In this document: in pieces, positions 20,838-64,000 of the stretch | Position numbering within the stretch: position 1 is the stretch's first letter | Layout: the number at the start of each line of letters is the position of its first letter | Source: Nostoc sp. DedSLP01 | GTDB lineage: Bacteria; Cyanobacteriota; Cyanobacteriia; Cyanobacteriales; Nostocaceae | Direction: 5' to 3' | Assembly: GCA_034530875.2 (NCBI GenBank) | Contig: JAVRCJ020000007.1 | Coordinates: 216,827-280,826 of the forward strand | Length of the DNA: 64,000 nt | The notes under the pieces: generated by a model | What the model saw: only the letters and a program-made list of their open reading frames with translations | Told to the model about the DNA's origin: nothing | The model's database searches: none | Program-made: the position numbers and the translations under genes

Positions 20838-20915
20838 AGCGTTTATTGTGATGAGCTTTGATTTGGGTCAAAAATGCTAGAATCGCTTCAGCACAAATGC
20901 TTTCAGGCATCTTTG

Positions 20916-22148
20916 ATGACTTTCGACCTTCCCGACTCCCTGATTCTCGATACGGCACTTTCGGTATCTGGTTTAACTGACTATATCCGCTTGCTGCTAG
21001 AGCAAGATGAACAACTGCGGCAAGTTTGGGTGACTGGGGAAGTCTCCAGCGCTAACCACCATCGCAGCGGCTTATTTTTCACGTTGCAAGATACAGATGG
21101 CACCGCAGGAATTAAGTGTGTGGTATGGAATAGTCAATTGGCAAAACTCGCGCAATTACCGGTTCCTGGGGAACAGATAATTATTTTGGGTAGTATTCGA
21201 GTTTACCCACAACGCGGAGAATATCAGCTGTCAGTTTGGCAGACTTTACCTGCTGGTGTTGGTTTACAGGCGCTACGCTATCAACAACTCAAAAATCGCT
21301 TGCTCGCTGAAGGCTTATTCGATCCACAAAGGAAGCGATCGCTCCCCATTCATCCCCAAACCATTGCCGTAGTCACTTCACCAACTGCGGCGGCTTGGGG
21401 TGATATTCAAAAAACTCTCAAGCAAAGATATCCAGGCTTACACGTTTTATTTTCTCCAGCCACAGTACAAGGCGAACAAGCACCAGAATCTATAGTTAAA
21501 GCAATTGAGCGAGTTGACTGGGATGGCCGTGCCGAAGTGCTAATTTTATCGCGTGGTGGTGGTGCGGTTGAGGAATTGGCTTGTTTTAATGACGAACGAG
21601 TAGTAAGGGCTGTTGCTAGTTGTTCGATTCCAGTAATTACTGGCATTGGGCATCAACGAGATGAATCTTTAGTAGATTTAGTTGCAGATGTATGCGTGCA
21701 TACACCAACGGCGGCAGCGGAAAGAGTTGTGCCGGCAATTGCAGAGTTATATGCCGAACATCGGCAGCGAGTTCTGGCTTTGCATGAGGTGGTGTATGAC
21801 TCGTGGGAAGCTGCTGAAAATAAACTGCAAGCATTGCGAAACCGTTTGCGACGTTTGCGGTTAGATCGGCAAGTGCAGCAGGAAGCGCAGAAGCTAGTTT
21901 GGAAGCGTCAGCAATTGGTGCAAGTGACGATCGCGCGATCGCACCAAGCAAAGCAGCATTTGGAATTATTGCGGCAAAAGTTGGCAACTCTCGATCCGAA
22001 AGCTGTGTTGCAGCGTGGTTATGCAGTGGTGAGACAGGAAAATGGTGCGATCGCTCGTAGTGCGGCTGAGTTAGAAGTAGGGCAAGATTTATCGATTCAG
22101 TTGGGACAGGGTGAGGTGAAAGTGAAAGTTACGGAAGTAAAAAAGTAG
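20916..22148 (+). CDS. xseA: Exodeoxyribonuclease VII large subunit
   Basis: VWVTGEVSS, VVTSPTAAA, RGGG, GIGHQRD, TPTAAAE, VLQRGYAVV. Confidence 0.96.
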   Translation: MTFDLPDSLILDTALSVSGLTDYIRLLLEQDEQLRQVWVTGEVSSANHHRSGLFFTLQDTDGTAGIKCVVWNSQLAKLAQLPVPGEQIIILGSIRVYPQRGEYQLSVWQTLPAGVGLQALRYQQLKNRLLAEGLFDPQRKRSLPIHPQTIAVVTSPTAAAWGDIQKTLKQRYPGLHVLFSPATVQGEQAPESIVKAIERVDWDGRAEVLILSRGGGAVEELACFNDERVVRAVASCSIPVITGIGHQRDESLVDLVADVCVHTPTAAAERVVPAIAELYAEHRQRVLALHEVVYDSWEAAENKLQALRNRLRRLRLDRQVQQEAQKLVWKRQQLVQVTIARSHQAKQHLELLRQKLATLDPKAVLQRGYAVVRQENGAIARSAAELEVGQDLSIQLGQGEVKVKVTEVKK

Positions 22149-22323: not shown

Positions 22324-22398
22324 TAAAAGCAGTGTAATTCATTTTGAGACTGATTCGTTATAATATTGACGATAAACTTTGCTAAAGAGGGCAAATAT

Positions 22399-22608
22399 AT
22401 GACTAGCCGCGAGCAGCTTATCCAAGAAATTGCAGAGCTTCCAGATGAGTTAGTCAAAGTAATGTTAGATTTTTTGCATCGGGTTCAGGCAACGCATAGT
22501 CATCATCCTCTAGCAAAATTTGCGGGTATTTTGAGTGATGATGAAGCGGCTGATTTACAGAAAGCAATTCAAACTGATTGTCGTCAGGTTGATTTAAATG
22601 AGTGGTGA
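22399..22608 (+). CDS. Putative antitoxin (DUF2281-like)
   Basis: EQLIQEIAELPDELVKVMLDFL; PLAKFAGILSDDEA; overlaps PIN gene. Confidence 0.75.
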   Translation: MTSREQLIQEIAELPDELVKVMLDFLHRVQATHSHHPLAKFAGILSDDEAADLQKAIQTDCRQVDLNEW

Positions 22609-22987
22609 AATTGCGTTAGATACTTCTGTTGCAGTACGTTTTCTAAATGGCGATCCTAATGTTGTTTCAAGGGTATTAGCGTTACCAGAAATATTTTTGT
22701 CGGTGGTAGTAGTGGGAGAGTTACTATTTGGGGCTGAGAACTCGACTCGACCGTTGAAAAATCTTCCTCGATATTTGGAGTTTATAGAAGTTTGTGCGGT
22801 TGTGCCTGTGGAAAAGCGAACGGCAGTTATCTATGCTCAGACTCGTTTGGCTTTGAAGCGCAAAGGGCGACCAATTCCTATGAATGATGTTTGGATTGCA
22901 GCACACTGTCTAGAACATGGTTGGGTGCTTGTTACCAATGATTCAGATTTTGATTATGTGGATGGATTGGTTATAGAGCATTGGTAA
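22598..22987 (+). CDS. vapC: PIN-domain (VapC) toxin
   Basis: LDTSV, VVGELLFG, GRPIPMNDVWIAA, LVTNDSDF. Confidence 0.92.
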   Translation: MSGEIALDTSVAVRFLNGDPNVVSRVLALPEIFLSVVVVGELLFGAENSTRPLKNLPRYLEFIEVCAVVPVEKRTAVIYAQTRLALKRKGRPIPMNDVWIAAHCLEHGWVLVTNDSDFDYVDGLVIEHW

Positions 22988-23148: not shown

Positions 23149-26100
23149 ATGACGCAGGATGAGTTATTGGTACTGATAGATCGCGCCGTGGCTGAGGGTT
23201 GGCGAGAGTTAGACTTGTCGGGACAAGAGTTGACACAGTTACCTGTAGAAATTGGTAAATTGCAGCAGCTTGAGTCTTTGATTTTGGGAAAGAAGGTTGA
23301 AGGTTATGAAGAAGTAGGAAACCGCTATTTCCAGAAGGTTTCAGGCAACAATTTCAAAACGCTTCCACTTGAACTATTGAATTTGCCTAATTTGCGGAAG
23401 TTGGATATTAGTGGCAATCCTTTAGAGAGCATTCTCGATGTGGTAACGCAAATACTACTATATTTAGAGGAACTTATCTTAATTCGAGTAGAGCTAACTG
23501 AAATACCTGATGCGATCGCGCAATTAACCAATCTGACGCAGCTTCACCTTGATAGCAACCAAATAACCGAGATTCCAGAGGCGATCGCGAAATTAACCAA
23601 TCTGACGCAGCTTCACCTCAGTGACAACCAAATAACCGAGATTCCAGAGGCGATCGCTAATTTAACCAATCTGACGCAGCTTCACCTCAGTAGCAACCAA
23701 ATAACCCAAATACCGGAGGGGATCGCTAAATTAACCAATCTGACGCAGCTTGACCTCAGTAGCAACCAAATAACCCAAATACCGGAGGCGATCGCTAAAT
23801 TAACCAATCTGACGCAGCTTGACCTGGATGGCAACCAAATAACCCAGATACCAGAGGCGATCGCGCAATTAACCAATCTGACGCAGCTTTACCTTAGTTT
23901 CAACCAAATAACCCAGATACCAGAGGCGATCGCGCAATTAACCTATCTGACGCAGCTTTTCCTCAGTGACAACCAAATAACCCAGATACCAGAGACGATC
24001 GCGCAATTAACCAATCTGACGCAGCTTTTCCTCAGTGACAACCAAATAACCCAGATACCAGAGACGATTGCGCAATTAACCAATCTGACGCAGCTTTTCC
24101 TCAGTAACAACCAAATAACCGAGATACCAGAGACGATCGCGCAATTAACCAATCTGACGCAGCTTGTTCTCTATAACAACCAAATAACCGAGATACCAGA
24201 GACGATCGGTAAATTAACCAATCTGACGCAGCTTGACCTGGATGGCAACCAAATAACCGAGATACCAGAGACGATCACGCAATTAACCAATCTGACGCAG
24301 CTTGACCTCCGTAACAACCAAATAACCGAGATACCAGAGACGATCGGTAAATTAACCAATCTGACGCAGCTTTTCCTCAATAACAACCAAATAACCCAGA
24401 TACCAGAGGCGATCGCGCAATTAACCAATCTGAGGGAGCTTTACCTCAGTAGCAACCAAATAACCCAGATACCAGAGGCGATCGAAAGTTTGCCGAAATT
24501 GGAAAAACTAGATTTACGGGGAAATCCGCTTCCTATTTCACCAGAGATTTTAGGATCTTCTAATGATGTTGGTTCAGTTGAAGACATTTTCAATTACTTG
24601 CGATTACTCCGAAGCGGTGAAGTGCGTCCACTCAACGAAGCCAAACTCTTGCTCATCGGACAAGGTAGCGTCGGCAAAACATCCCTCATCCAGCGACTAA
24701 TCCGCGATAAATACGATCAAAATCAACCCCAAACCGACGGACTCAATGTGGAAACTTGGAACGTGCAGGTCAATAGCAAAGACATCCGCCTGAATGTTTG
24801 GGACTTTGGCGGACAGGAAATTTATCATGCCACCCATCAGTTTTTTCTGACTAAGCGCAGCCTCTATCTCCTCGTTTGTAATTGTCGCACCAGCGAAGAA
24901 GAAAACCGCATCGAATATTGGCTGAAACTAATCGAAAGCTTCGGCGGACAGTCCCCCGTGATTATCGTTGGCAACAAAAAAGACGAACAACCCCTCGACA
25001 TCAACCGCAAAGCATTACGCGAAAAATATCCTAACATCCAAGCGATTATCGAAACCTCCTGCCAAGACAATATCGGCATTGATGAACTTCGCACCGCAAT
25101 TTTGCAGCAAATCGCCAAACTCAAAGAAGTCTACGACCTTTTACCCCTCTCATGGTTTGAGGTTAAACAAAAACTCGAATCCATGACTGAAGACTTCATC
25201 AGCTACAACAGCTACATCGGCATCTGCCACCAAAAAGAGATTCCCGAAGAACAAAACCAAGAGCAACTAATCGATTTGCTGCATCGACTCGGCTTAGTTC
25301 TCAACTTCCGCGATCATCCCATCCTCAAAGATACCAACGTCCTCAAACCCAACTGGGTGACAGAAGGCATTTACACGCTCCTGAGCGATGAAAACCTCAA
25401 AACTAAAACCAAAGGCATTTTCACCCCCGCCGATCTCACCCGCATCCTCAATCCAGAGCGATACCCCACTAAGCGTCACGACTATCTGATCGGGCTGATG
25501 AAAGAATTTGAGCTTTGCTTTGCACTAGAATGTTACCCACCACAATTTCTGATTGCGGGACTTCTGCCTAAAGACGAACCAGACGAAACAGAACTCGACG
25601 GCGAAACCCTGGAATTTCAATACCATTACAAAGTTCTCCCCGAAAGCATCATCTCCCGCTTCATCGTCATTACCCACGAAAAAATTCATAACCAAATCTA
25701 TTGGCGCAGTGGCGTAATGCTGCAATATCAAGAAAACAACGAAATCTACAATATTGCTCGCATCAAAGCGGATCCCGAAGACAAAAAAATCTTCATCACC
25801 ATTAGCGAACGTAAAGAAACCCGCCGCTTATTTCTCGGTATTCTCCGCGATGTCTTCCAAAAAATCCACAAAAGTCTTCCCAATCTCGAAATCACCGAAT
25901 GGGTTCCTGTCCCCAACTATCCCAAACATCCGCCCCTCGACTACCAAGAACTACTTGGACTCGAATCAATGGGTGAAAGCACAATCACCATCGGCAAACT
26001 AAAATTAAAACTCGATTTGCGTCAACTACTTGATGGGTATGAAGATATAAGAACTCGACAAAGACAACAAATAGACAAAGGAATTATTGAACCAGCCCCG

Positions 26101-26568
26101 ATTAAGGAACCAATTATGTCAGAAAGCATCAGAAACCAAATATTTGTTAGCTACAGTCATCAAGATGCAGAATGGTTAACAGAACTACAAATACAACTAA
26201 AACCCTATATTCGTGCAGAAAATTTTATCGTTTGGGATGACACCAAAATCAAACCTGGCGCAAAATGGAAAGCCGAGATTGAAAAAGCATTAGCCACAGC
26301 TAAGGTTGCTATCCTGCTAGTCAGCCCTAACTTTATAGGCTCTGATTTCATCGACAGACATGAGCTACCCCCCTTACTCAACGCAGCCGAACAAGAGGGA
26401 TTAACCATTATCTGGATTCCAATTAGTGCAAGCTCATACAGAAAAACCGACATCCAAGAATACCAAGCTGCTCACCCTCCAGATAAACCCCTCGACAGTC
26501 TAAATAAGGCAGAACGTAACCAAGCTTGGGTAAAAATTTGCGAAGAAGTCGAAAAGGCAATGAAATAG
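23149..26568 (+). CDS. Roco-family protein: LRR - Roc GTPase - COR - TIR
   Basis: 23-aa LRRs; G1 GQGSVGKT, G3 WDFGGQ, G4 [53 protein letters not shown]. Confidence 0.93.
23521..24486 (+). repeat. 14 tandem near-identical 69-nt LRR-coding repeats
   Basis: Consensus (c/a)aattaaccaatctgacgcagcttNNCctBNNTNNCaaccaaataacc(c/g)agataccagag(g/a)cgatcgc(g/t); 14 x 69 = 966 nt. Confidence 0.95.
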
Positions 26569-26770: not shown

Positions 26771-26777
26771 GAGTTCG

Positions 26778-27080
26778 CCAAAATAACAAATGCGCTGCCA
26801 AAATTATAAATGCGCTCGCCAAAATCATAAATGCGCTCGCCAAAATCATAAATGCGCTCGCCAAAATCATAAATGCGCTCACAAAATTATAAATACGCTC
26901 ACAAAAATCATAAATGCGTCGCCAAAATTATAAATGCGCTCACAAAATTATAAATGCGCTCACAAAATTATAAATGCGCTCGCCAAAATTATAAATGCGC
27001 TCACAAAATTATAAATGCGCTCGCCAAAATCATAAATGTGTCACCAAAATCATAAATGCGTCGTCAAAATCATAAATGCT
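26778..27080. repeat. Tandem array of ~15 units of 20-21 nt
   Basis: (c)caaaat(t/c)ataaatgcgctc(g/a) repeated without spacers. Confidence 0.92.
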
Positions 27081-27909: not shown

Positions 27910-28143
27910 ATGGTTAAACGCAAGAGTGCTTCTAGTTCTGATTCGATGGAAGGGTGGAACTATGAGGCAAAAGTTATTGAAATTGAGGGAATTATCGCCC
28001 GCATTGAGGCGGGTGAGTTGGAATTGGAAGAGGTTTTTGACCAATTTGGCAAGGCTGTTGAGTATTTGCGTCAGTGCGAAAATTTTTTGCAAAAGCGGCA
28101 GCAGCAGGTGGATTTGTTAATTGAAACTTTAAGCGATGAATAA
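27910..28143 (+). CDS. xseB: Exodeoxyribonuclease VII small subunit
   Basis: [24 protein letters not shown]...LRQCENFL. Confidence 0.9.
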
Positions 28144-59632: not shown

Positions 59633-62600
59633 TTAGGCGATCGCAGTAATATTTGTACTAGCGAGCATTACTTGATTGGAGAATTGGGCGATTTGAACTT
59701 GTGCTGCACCACCAACTCCATCTTCATCAAAGAATAAATTACCCGTAGTTCGATCGTAGATGAAGCGATCGCCTGCTGTTGTCGCACTAGTCCCAAGTCG
59801 GAACAACCCAGAATCGAGTGTCGTATCTTGAGATTGGGTCAGTGCAAATTCCGCCTTAGAAATGAAGATAGTATCATCCCCAACAGTAAAATCAGTAATA
59901 GTATCATACCCACCAGTGCGGGTATCAGTCAGGTATAAACTATCTCGCCCAGTTCCACCAGTCAGGAAATCTCGACCAATTCCCCCGGTGAGTACATCGT
60001 CACCTGCATCGCCCAACAAGGTGTCATTGCCATTTCCACCATTTAAAGTGTCATTGCCAGAACCACCATTTAAGTAGTCATCGTCATCTCCACCATTTAA
60101 GGTATCACTACCAGAACCACTATTTAAGGTGTCATTACCAGAACCACCATCTAAGGTGTCACTACCAGAACCACTATCTAAGATGTCACGATCATCTCCA
60201 CCACTTAAATAGTCATCGTCATCTCCACCATTTAAAGTGTCATTGCCAGAACCACCATTTAAAGCGTCATTGTCAAAACCACCATTTAAGTAATCATTGT
60301 CATCTCCACCATTTAAAGTGTCATTGCCAGAACCACCATCTAAGCTGTCATTGCCAGAACCACCATCTAAGATGTCACGATCGTCTCCACCATTTAAAGC
60401 GTCATTGCCAGAACCACCATCTAAGCTGTCATTGCCAGAACCACCATCTAAGCTGTCATTACCAGAACCACCATCTAAGCTGTCATTACCAGAACCACCA
60501 TCTAAGCTGTCATTGCCATTTTCTCCTTTTAAGGTATTATTACCAATGTTTCCACTGATAACATTGTTTAAAGAATTACCAGTGCCATTGATGGACTCTG
60601 TTGCAATCAGGGTCAAATTCTCTAGATTAGCTCCCAACACCCAACTTACGGAAGATACGACTAAATCTTGACCTGCATTGAAATCTTCAATAATCGTATC
60701 GCCGATGCTGTCCACAATATAAGTGTCATTATTTACACCACCAACGAGAATATCATCTCCTGTACCACCATCTAAGGAATCATCTCCAGAACTGCCATTA
60801 AGGGTATCATTATCACCTAATCCTTTGAGGTTGTCATTACCGCCGAATCCGGAGATCAGATCTTCATTTTCTGTACCAGTTAGGTTGTTTGCACCGTCAG
60901 TGCCATTAATTACATTCAATCTTTTCACTACAAGTACAAAAACATCGCTGACAGTTGCTATTCCATCACTGGCAATAACTTTGATATTGAGGCGATCGAC
61001 GTTGTTATTAGCGGGAGTACCACTGAAGGTAGTGCCGTTAAAGGTCAACCAAGCAGGAAGCGGGTCACCATTTTCCAGGGTAGCGCTGTAAGTGAGGTTA
61101 CCTTTTACATCTACATCTGTGAAAGTATTTGCTGGTAAGGCGAACCTGAAGGTGTTATCTATGGGGGCTATTTGGTCGGCAATGGGGTTGGCAACAACTG
61201 GGTCATCGTTAACTGCCGTAATATTAATATTGCGGATAGCAGCGATACTATAAGCAGTACCATCATTAACGACAAAGCTGAAAGAACGAGTTGCGGTACT
61301 AGGGTTGTTACTGTTGTTGGTATAAGTAATGGATTGCAGTGCGGTTTGATAATCAGCAACAGTGGCAGTGCCAGTTAATTTTAAAACGCCTGTGCTACTG
61401 GTATAGCTGCCAGTAATTCCATTTTGGTTGCTGAAGGCGATAATATCTTGACCAGAGACGAAGCCATTGGTAATGCTGACGGTGGCACTAGAGAGGTTAG
61501 CGGAGTCTAAATCACTCAAGGAAATAGCAGAGTCAATAACTGTAGTAGTATTCTCGGTGTAGACTAAGCCAGAGCTAGTAGCAATAGCAACAGGCACATC
61601 ATTGACTGCCGTCAGATTAATATTGCGGATAGCAGCGATACTATTAGCAATACCATCATTGACGACAAAGCTAACTTGACGAGGTGTAATAGTGGGGTTG
61701 TCGCTGCTGTTGGTATAAGTAATCGAACGTAGTGCGGTTTGATAATCAGCAACAGTGGCAGTGCCAGTTAAGGTTAAGACACCTGTGCTGCTGTTATAGC
61801 TGCTGCTAATTCCATTTTGGTTAGTGAACTTAAGGATGTCTTCACTAGAGACAAAACCACTAGTAATGCTGATGGTGGCACCAAAGAGGTAGGGGGAGTC
61901 TGCATCAGTGAGGATAATGCCTGAGTCAATGGCTGTAGTGGCGTTTTCGCTGTATGCCACAGCAGAGCTGTTGACAGTAGCAATCGGTGGATTATTCACT
62001 GGCGTAGTATTAAGATTGCGAGTCACAGCAGTACTATTGGCAACCCCATCATTGACAACAAAGCTGATGGTACGAGATACACTACTAGGGTTGTCGCTGC
62101 TATTGCTATAAGTAACTGAACGTAGTGCAGTTTGATAATCAGCAACAGTGGCAGTGCCAGTTAAGGTTAAGACGCCTGTGCTGCTGTTATAGCTGCTGCT
62201 AATTCCATTTTGATTAGTGAAGTTGAGGGTGTCTTGAGTAGAGACGAAACCACTAGCAATCTTCACAGTGGCACTAGCTAAGTTAGCCGAGTCTACATCG
62301 CTGAGGATAATGCCTGAGTCAATGGCTGTAGCGGCGTTCTTGGTGGTGTATGCCAAAGCAGATTTCGTGACAGTAGCAATGGGCGCATCATTGATTGCTG
62401 TAATATTCAGATTGCGGGTAGCAGTGATACTATTGGCAACCCCATCATTGACAACAAAGCTGATGGTACGAGTTGCAGTACTGGGGTTGTCGCTGCTGTT
62501 GGTATAAGTAATTGAACGGAGTGCAGTTTGATACTCAGCAACTGAGGCATTGCCTGTTAAGGTTAAGACACCTGTGCTGCTGTTGTAGCTGCTGCTAATT

Positions 62601-64000
62601 CCATTTTTGTTGGTGAAGTTGAGGGTGTCTTCAGTAGAGACGAAACCACTGCTAATGCTGACAGTGGCACTAACTAAGTTGAGCGAGTCATCGGTGAGGA
62701 TGATGCCTGGGTCAATGGCTGTAGTGGCGTTTTCGCTGTATGCCGCAGCAGAGTTGGTAACACTAGCAATGGGGGCATCATTGACTGCCGTAATATTTAT
62801 ATTGCGAGTCACAGCAGTACTATTAGCATCCCCATTATTGACGACAAAGCTGATGGTACGAGTTATGAGAGTGGGGTTGTCGCTGCTGTTGGCATAAGTA
62901 ATCGATTGCAGTGCGGTTTGATAATTCGCAATTGTGGCAGTGCCGATTAGGGTTAAGACACCTGTGCCGCGGTTGTAGCTGCCAGTAATTCCATTTTGGT
63001 TGGTGAAGTTGAGGATGTCTTCACTATATTTGAAACCACTGCTAATGCTGACGGTGGCACCAGATAGGTTGAGTGAGTCTACATTACTTAAGATGATGCC
63101 TGAGTCGATGGCTGTAGTGGTGTTTTCAATGTATTCCACAACAGAGTTAGTAGAAATAGCAACAGGCGGATCGTTGACTGCCTTAATATCAATATTGCGG
63201 GTAACGGGGGTACTATCGGCAATCCCATCATTGATGACAAAGCTGATAGTACGAGTTGTGATACTGGGGTTGTTGCTGCTGTTGGTATAAGTAATCGAAC
63301 GTAGTGCGGCTTGATAATCAGCAACGGTGGCAGTGCCAGTTAAGGTTAAGACCCCTGTGCTACTGCTGTAGCTGCCAGTAATTCCATTTTGGTTGGTGAA
63401 GTTGAGGATGTCTTCATTAGAGACGAAACCATTGGTAATTCTGACGCTAGCACCAAAGAGGTTGGGCAAATCTACATCGCTGAGAATGATACCTGAGTCG
63501 ATGGCTGTAGTGGCGTTCTCAGTGTAGGCTAAGGCAGAGTTGGTGGCAACAACAACAAGCGGATCGTTGACTGCCGTAACATTAATATTGCGAGTAACGG
63601 CAGTACTATTGGCAGTGCCATCATTGACGATAAAGCTGATGCTACGAGGTGTGGTAGTGGGGTTCTCACTGCTATTGTTATAAGTAATCGAACGCAGTGC
63701 GGTTTGATAATTCGCAACTGTGGCAGTGCCTGTTAAGGTTAAAACACCTGTGCTGCTGTTGTAGTTGCCAATAATTCCATTTTGGTTGGTGAACTTAAGG
63801 ATGTCTTCACTAGAAACGAAACCACTGCTAATGCTGACGGTGGCACTAACTAGGTTGGCGGAGTCTACATCACTGAGGATAATGCCTGAGTCGATGGCTG
63901 TAGTGGCGTTCTCAGTGTATGTTAAGGGAGAGTTGGTAGCAGTAGCAACAGGCGCATCATTGACTGGCGTAATATTAATATTGCGGGTAACGGCGTTACT
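59633..64000 (-). CDS. Giant RTX adhesin-like surface protein (5' end outside window): ~130-aa tandem Ig/cadherin-like repeats, dystroglycan-type cadherin domain, RTX Ca-binding nonapeptides, T1SS-type C-terminus
   Basis: Frame reads on upstream of the 63469 TTG ([19 protein letters not shown]); repeats ~390-396 nt; LPAWLTF motif; GGSGNDSLD repeats. Confidence 0.9.
59940..60550 (-). repeat. 27-nt tandem repeats encoding RTX nonapeptides
   Basis: ccagaaccaccatctaagctgtcatt(g/a) units. Confidence 0.9.

Follow-up and report, generated by a model that had tools for sequence, protein, structure and literature searches.

Evidence for selection and repeat recombination at concave-face codons of a leucine-rich repeat array in a Nostoc LRR-Roc-COR-TIR protein, a predicted intracellular sensor

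Prokaryotic AP-GTPase systems combine leucine-rich repeats (LRRs) described as 'rapidly evolving' with an AP-GTPase, a COR domain and a variable C-terminal effector position, for which at least 24 domains including TIR were catalogued, and they were predicted to counter invaders (Kaur et al., 2021, PMC8195603). Several paralogues occur in one genome, and the accessible text of that work gives the LRRs one sentence, with neither an experiment nor an analysis at the level of codons, repeats or strains. The best-studied relative in structural terms, the Roco protein of Chlorobium tepidum (PDB 6HLU, 8R4B), has the same LRR-Roc-COR layout and serves as a model of LRRK2; its C-terminal 150 residues are unresolved, and no immune role or repeat variation was found in the accessible part of its account (PMC11052575). 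Within the open-access literature we found neither a codon-level study or defence assay of a bacterial Roco nor a report of anti-phage activity, and the accessible portion of one further source (PMC7159879) held nothing on Roco.

The evolutionary regime considered below is already known from eukaryotes. In the fungal NLRs het-d/het-e and their relatives with HNWD, TPR and ANK repeats, near-identical repeats are polymorphic in number and shuffled, positive selection falls on a few binding-face positions per repeat, and effectors are swappable; these proteins differ from the one described here in having a STAND ATPase instead of a Roc-COR GTPase, WD, TPR or ANK units instead of LRRs, an N-terminal effector and a eukaryotic host (Dyrka et al., 2014, PMC4986451). 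Brown-algal LRR-ROCO proteins share the LRR-Roc-COR core, a changing repeat number and positive selection on three to four concave-face residues per repeat, but each repeat is one exon, subject to exon shuffling and splicing, whereas the present array is an intron-less tandem fused, unlike theirs, to a TIR domain (Zambounis, 2012, PMC3341825; PMC11378527). Lamprey VLRs likewise consist of LRR modules variable in number and on the concave face (PMC3341825). Diversity-generating retroelements (DGRs) also change codon positions 1 and 2, leave NNY codons and act on putative sensors of multicellular bacteria, their target being a C-type lectin (PMC10907252).

The stretch of DNA analysed here, hereafter the window, comprises 64,000 nucleotides of Nostoc sp. 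DedSLP01, from a draft genome of 113 contigs (99.8% complete). It contains an ORF of 1139 aa (23149-26568, + strand) without internal stop, encoding an LRR-Roc-COR-TIR protein (prokaryotic Roco, or AP-GTPase) in which no obvious signal peptide or membrane segment was discerned by eye. An N-terminal cap with degenerate LRRs (residues 1-125; 23149-23523, +), whose start is conserved in close homologues and whose model confidence is low, precedes the LRR array, which is followed by a capping LRR and linker (24490-24642, +), the Roc GTPase (24643-25116, +; PF08477, E 2.6e-33), COR-A and COR-B (residues 666-806 and 819-963; 25144-26037, +; PF16095, E 1.9e-42, and PF25497, E 8.7e-35) and the TIR domain (26140-26565, +; PF13676, TIR_2, E 2e-12). 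LRRs were recognised by Pfam as well. The Roc motifs are all intact (P-loop at residue 504 with K510, DFGGQ at 552, NKKD at 609), and Roc is directly followed by COR-A and COR-B, all above the Pfam cut-off, which by sequence places the protein among the Roco proteins. C. tepidum Roco is its best solved relative (E 7.5e-127), and the named close homologues belong to Nostoc and related filamentous cyanobacteria. Glu1072 of the TIR domain (nt 26362) is aligned to the Glu conserved in the bacterial TIRs 3h16 and 7uxr, and its equivalent was kept in all 11 TIR-bearing homologues; we take this Glu of bacterial TIRs to be the catalytic residue, and the fold together with the putative catalytic glutamate would make the domain a predicted TIR NADase effector. 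PADLOC matched the TIR part alone. A promoter and terminator scan gave no excess over shuffled sequence.

With its N-terminal, rapidly evolving LRRs and a variable C-terminal effector position, the predicted protein corresponds to the AP-GTPase systems of Kaur et al. (2021), and four of the six accessions looked up, all of them close homologues, are listed in that paper: WP_012407958 (+TIR), AVH71003 and WP_011318314 (+DUF4404), and WP_015203756. The architecture and the immune reading are already published predictions, and the window gene joins a catalogued family; the first-pass annotation of this DNA had recognised the array, leaving the Roc-COR-TIR fusion that carries it unmentioned. Three more Roc-COR genes in the same genome (G000:C4, 333.1-336.1 kb; C23, 124.0-127.4 kb; C12, 28.5-32.4 kb) match the multiplicity of paralogues described for the family. 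In the C23 paralogue the TIR is 67% identical to that of the window and the Roc-COR only 34%, which suggests TIR exchange between paralogues, and the C12 paralogue has two Roc-COR-like stretches.

Tandem Repeats Finder located a period-69 tandem of 14.2 copies at 23503-24484, which in codon phase is an array of 14 units of 69 nt (23 aa) at 23524-24489 (+; residues 126-447). The number and length of the units agree with the earlier annotation, whose codon lists for the three variable positions (X1, X2, X3) were also correct to the letter. These codons are unit positions 8, 10 and 11 (in the first unit 23545-23547, 23551-23553 and 23554-23556, +, and every 69 nt thereafter). The accompanying claim that the repeats were nearly invariant elsewhere stands in part: the three focal codons are the most variable, but codons 16 (E/Q), 20 (A/T/G), 22 (A/G/T/E) and 23 (K/Q/N/S) vary too. 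At minimum, 13 non-silent changes are needed in the three focal codons of the window array, as against 12 in the other 20, and units differ from one another by a mean of 8.7 per 69 nt (87% identical). Repeats 5 and 11 do share one 12-nt variable block, D-L-D-G (23821-23832 and 24235-24246, +), including a silent CTG present in no other unit of the array, and such sharing had a chance of 0.011 when codon columns were shuffled.

The location of the variable codons on the concave strand, proposed previously, agrees with an AlphaFold model built for residues 1-499 from the single sequence (mean pLDDT 76; mostly >90 over the array, <50 in the cap), the fold of which matches LRR solenoids. Modelled strands at residues 131-135, 154-158 and so on correspond to unit positions 6-10; positions 6, 8 and 10 face outward, alternating with core leucines, and position 11 lies at the strand end. 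The concave strand face is the ligand-binding face of LRR proteins.

Homologues were collected by searching 150 relatives, for which 46 near-full Roc-COR matches were listed at ≥89%. Forty loci were taken, namely 35 of these 46, an additional copy in one genome and four distant homologues; the remaining 11 close matches had arrays at contig ends and were left out. The distant loci (L064-L067) were kept apart, and L069, with masked bases and one repeat, was excluded from repeat counts, resulting in 36 arrays and 423 canonical repeats. The repeat pattern required the canonical L, N, I and P, so that invariance at these residues is by construction and irregular repeats were missed. Four homologues (L060, L061, L067 and L070) are broken or shortened, with in-frame stops or a split TIR, consistent with birth-and-death turnover.

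The C-terminal domain is swapped among homologues. On the 38-row Roc-COR tree the ends comprise 11 TIR, 18 helical, 5 tails with a GDN motif and 4 other short ends (L052 being relabelled by hand as a short tail), and the labels change at least 14 times on this partly unresolved tree, with at least three changes of TIR on well-supported branches. The helical domain had no Pfam match; in close homologues it is named DUF4404 in the supplement of PMC8195603. Downstream of the short-tail homologues with the motif N-Q-H-G-E-G-D-N-x-G-G-D (L051:5400-6767, L059:5400-6626, and also L038, L058 and L064) come first a DUF6883 gene and next a DUF4926 gene; the latter has a glycine/aspartate repeat motif resembling that of the tail, followed by the helical domain found fused to COR in other homologues. 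This looks like either a DUF6883-DUF4926 insertion or a link, possibly of the amyloid type, through matching motifs between sensor and separate effector.

The neighbourhoods of the Roco genes are many, often beside toxin-antitoxin-like pairs. In the window, a small ORF (22366-22608, +) and a PIN-domain gene (22598-22987, +) form a vapBC-like module (22366-22987) upstream of the Roco gene; this module lies upstream of only some homologues and is not a fixed part of the locus. Fixed synteny was rejected, with xseA flanking just 4 of the 40 other loci, the upstream flank being short in some of them. Between xseA (20874-22148) and an xseB-like ORF (27910-28143) the window has the vapBC-like module and the Roco gene, together with short repeats and a Uma2 gene. 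Three other loci (L044, L052 and L069) have xseB on the upstream side of their Roco gene, and these arrangements suggest an insertion hotspot. The short repeats are some 15 copies of a 20-21-nt unit (26777-27079) downstream of the Roco gene, and similar arrays lie upstream or downstream near 10 of the 40 homologous loci. A two-gene pair, which we take to be XisH/XisI, is downstream in 10 of the 40 loci (L035, L039, L041, L042, L050, L055, L057, L059, L062 and L067). The many neighbourhoods and the presence of two-repeat DNA in 56 of 90 genus genomes are typical of accessory conflict genes.

Taken as a whole, the protein is probably an intracellular sensor, switch and effector of the counter-invader type, with an array diversified by mutation, selection and recombination. 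The array would be its variable part and, as predicted, would bind the ligand, for which a cytoplasmic protein of phage or other foreign origin is the most likely candidate; ordinary point mutations at three to four concave-face codons would be kept by diversifying selection, and recombination among near-identical repeats would spread the variants. By analogy with C. tepidum Roco, the protein may have GTPase activity and a nucleotide-driven cycle between dimer and monomer, the resting dimer holding the LRR folded back on COR and GTP binding opening and monomerising it (PMC11052575), so that ligand binding would shift the switch. The switch could then rearrange the TIR domain, leading to NAD+ cleavage or a nucleotide signal by which the infected cell would be stopped or killed and the filament protected. 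The sensor function of the array is what we infer here, and defence against an invader is a prediction for the window gene, as it is in PMC8195603.

The same LRR and switch might instead serve self/non-self or partner recognition, or general signalling, such as filament contact or the perception inside the cell of signals from a host plant or a fungal symbiosis. The fungal HIC receptors het-d/het-e serve allorecognition (PMC4986451), the best DNA matches come from the root metagenomes of one study, and most homologues end not in TIR but in a helical domain that looks non-enzymatic or in a short tail. Such a role is nevertheless unlikely in our judgement: by its sequence the protein seems to be cytoplasmic, and a conflict with a fast-evolving invader is what its turnover (which resembles an arms race), its patchy presence, its changing neighbourhood and a TIR with a putative catalytic Glu would fit. 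The subfamily offers a tractable test of what prokaryotic Roco proteins, the bacterial models of LRRK2, do: on a near-constant Roc-COR chassis (89-96% identical), nature provides LRR codes by the dozen together with three exchangeable outputs, and specificity could therefore be mapped by array swaps.

The excess of non-silent change foreseen at the focal codons was checked codon by codon. In pairwise comparisons of the window units, pN was 0.449 at the focal codons and 0.068 elsewhere, and pS over all codons was 0.136; the three focal codons change at roughly three times the silent rate. When each column was scored by its distinct alleles, so that shuffling weighs less, the ratio was 2.96 (binomial p=0.010). 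Across the 36 arrays the three focal columns had the highest entropies (2.7-3.0 bits) and ratios of 2.9-3.9, as compared with 0.9-1.4 for the exposed convex codons 16, 20, 22 and 23, while the fourth strand position, 6, was variable in relatives with a ratio of 2.0. By the distinct-allele count the focal ratio exceeded 1 in 36/36 arrays and reached p<0.05 in 30/36, the arrays being kin and not independent. All 36 array codes differ, so that identity of arrays across relatives, which would have spoken against a diversifying sensor, is not seen; 170 distinct triplets occur, and S, D, Y, N, H and G make up 80% of the 1269 focal residues. These counting methods are simple and do not include a codon model with recombination.

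The variability would have a different meaning if the surface merely tolerated change, gene conversion homogenised the array and the apparent excess were an artefact of counting under recombination or misassembly. The focal positions are indeed solvent-exposed, shuffling inflates pairwise counts, and short-read assemblies are unreliable for such arrays. Relaxation, however, would yield a ratio near 1, as at the convex codons, whereas the focal ratio is near 3 by distinct alleles also, and all ten arrays from assemblies of ≤20 contigs gave p<0.05; we consider the absence of adaptive diversification very unlikely.

Repeat shuffling, the other component suggested at the outset, left recombination signals of several kinds. 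Framework sites break the four-gamete rule in 31 of the 33 arrays with at least eight units, neighbouring units are more alike than distant ones, and 15 of 36 arrays contain an identical 12-nt block in units that lie far apart and differ in framework. Among framework-identical unit pairs the focal base differences are bimodal (none in 52 pairs, 1-2 in 14, 3-6 in 45), which block exchange fits better than stepwise change. Framework pS is 0.148 within arrays and 0.198 between them, with 0.196 for Roc-COR, and homogenisation of the repeats is genome-specific in part only. In two paralogues of the window genome the LRR units are about twice as diverged (15.6 and 17.0 differences per unit vs 8.7). 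Selection and recombination together are very likely the source of the array diversity. The units of the window array resemble those of the fungal HIC NLRs in being more than 85% identical, shuffled and under site-specific positive selection, and the protein works like them without being a member, since the STAND core (NACHT/NB-ARC) is absent and Roc-COR stands in its place. The concerted-evolution-plus-selection regime is hereby extended to bacteria, at codon level.

Arrays also differ in repeat number and order among relatives, as the first-pass annotation had anticipated, although some of these differences may come from misassembly. The largest cluster is near-clonal, with Roc-COR identical in 10 of 11 members; its six full-length proteins have 8, 8, 12, 12, 13 and 17 strands (capping repeat counted), two records on chromosome-length contigs having 13 and 8, and one member's nine unit types suffice to build all six arrays. 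The same units in different number and order in near-clonal strains point to shuffling rather than to new codons. In three other pairs with identical Roc-COR, unit types were missing from the partner, and the nearest homologue of the window gene (L033; same xseA site, Roc-COR pS 0.07) has no triplet in common with it. Two records bearing one strain name (P0010 and P0011) are three repeats apart, and misassembly of short reads may contribute to length and order differences among records. A cross-species pool of cassettes is not supported, between-genome sharing of 12-nt blocks (47 vs 42±4 with shuffled columns, p=0.14) not being above chance; five whole units were common to different arrays, one pair being the two copies in one genome (G013). 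Unlike lamprey VLRs, the window array is intracellular and fused to a GTPase, and no donor LRR cassettes of the kind that flank VLR genes were found outside it in its own genome. In relatives, among the 150 of 500 DNA matches listed, those in near-complete genomes sit at Roco genes.

Whether recombination is fast enough to act within a clone bears on a further idea, that RT-independent reshuffling within clonal filaments maintains a standing LRR repertoire on a TIR death switch. We regard this as decidedly speculative; if true, it would make the protein a bacterial anticipatory immune receptor of the VLR type and would give a prokaryotic LRRK2 homologue its first physiological role. Reads bear on it at one point: in three runs of one study (X1-X3) both window flanks were matched exactly with a break inside the array, and run X1 carried a low-frequency change in the X3 codon of repeat 4 (depth 48/682).

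That minor variant could also speak for a targeted, RT-independent process that rewrites codon positions 1 and 2, or for shuffling so rapid within a clone that it generates an anticipatory repertoire. The third base is strikingly stable: 1240 of the 1269 focal codons end in C or T, the majority third base is kept in 273 of 280 focal codons of four-fold boxes, and transversions are about seven-fold rarer at third positions than at positions 1 and 2 (33 vs 279 and 190). Young alleles, however, inherit their third base; in Roc-COR, too, invariance over 35 rows holds for 65% of the two-fold codons and 27% of the four-fold codons, and adenine is involved in similar shares of focal (63%) and other (59%) differences. 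Against that Roc-COR figure for four-fold codons, the conservation of the leucine codon ahead of X1 (421 of 423 repeats) is by itself nothing exceptional, although the 23-codon unit has six near-invariant third bases of this kind. Near-clonal records of the largest cluster show no new codons, a second full-length record of the window protein has the same code with one framework change, and the variant of run X1 may be a second strain or an error. A targeted process is accordingly highly improbable. The 29 of 1269 focal codons ending in A or G compare with 21 of 144 in the four distant homologues (the latter counted by eye), and we assume that this scarcity reflects selection for a surface rich in S, D, Y, N, H and G and against K, E, Q, M and W.

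The earlier annotation had also remarked that the NNY pattern resembles DGR mutagenesis. Cyanobacteria do carry DGRs (PMC10907252), and the focal alphabet is near the 15 residues reachable from AAY. DGRs mutate template adenines (PMC10907252), so silent adenines of the target should vary, yet of the 423 repeats 421 keep that of codon 1, 420 that of codon 13 and 420 that of codon 18, and codon 13, four bases past the neighbour of X3, has no A-to-G change. The template must carry A wherever the target does. No template outside the array was found in the genome with up to six mismatches, and an X1 codon starting with A occurs in 0/14 window units. Codon 6 varies as NNG, with the G kept in 389 of 423 repeats, so that a fixed third base is what young non-silent alleles generally show when repeats are homogenised. 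No Avd was found in the genome, although the profile control itself scored below the cut-off, and its only two reverse transcriptases (RTs), one being a group II intron maturase and the other a DRT/Abi-like enzyme of 600 aa, are not of the DGR type. Mutagenic retrohoming from an adenine-rich template is thereby largely refuted and has next to no probability as the source of the diversity.

The 600-aa RT (L002:994-2796, on G000:C5) has weak DRT/Abi-type matches, all below cut-off, and lies towards the end of a contig beside a helicase-like fragment; it is possibly a defence RT. At the far end of the window (59633-64000, minus strand) lies a gene for an RTX/calcium-binding repeat protein with a further repeat array, of seven 393-nt units.
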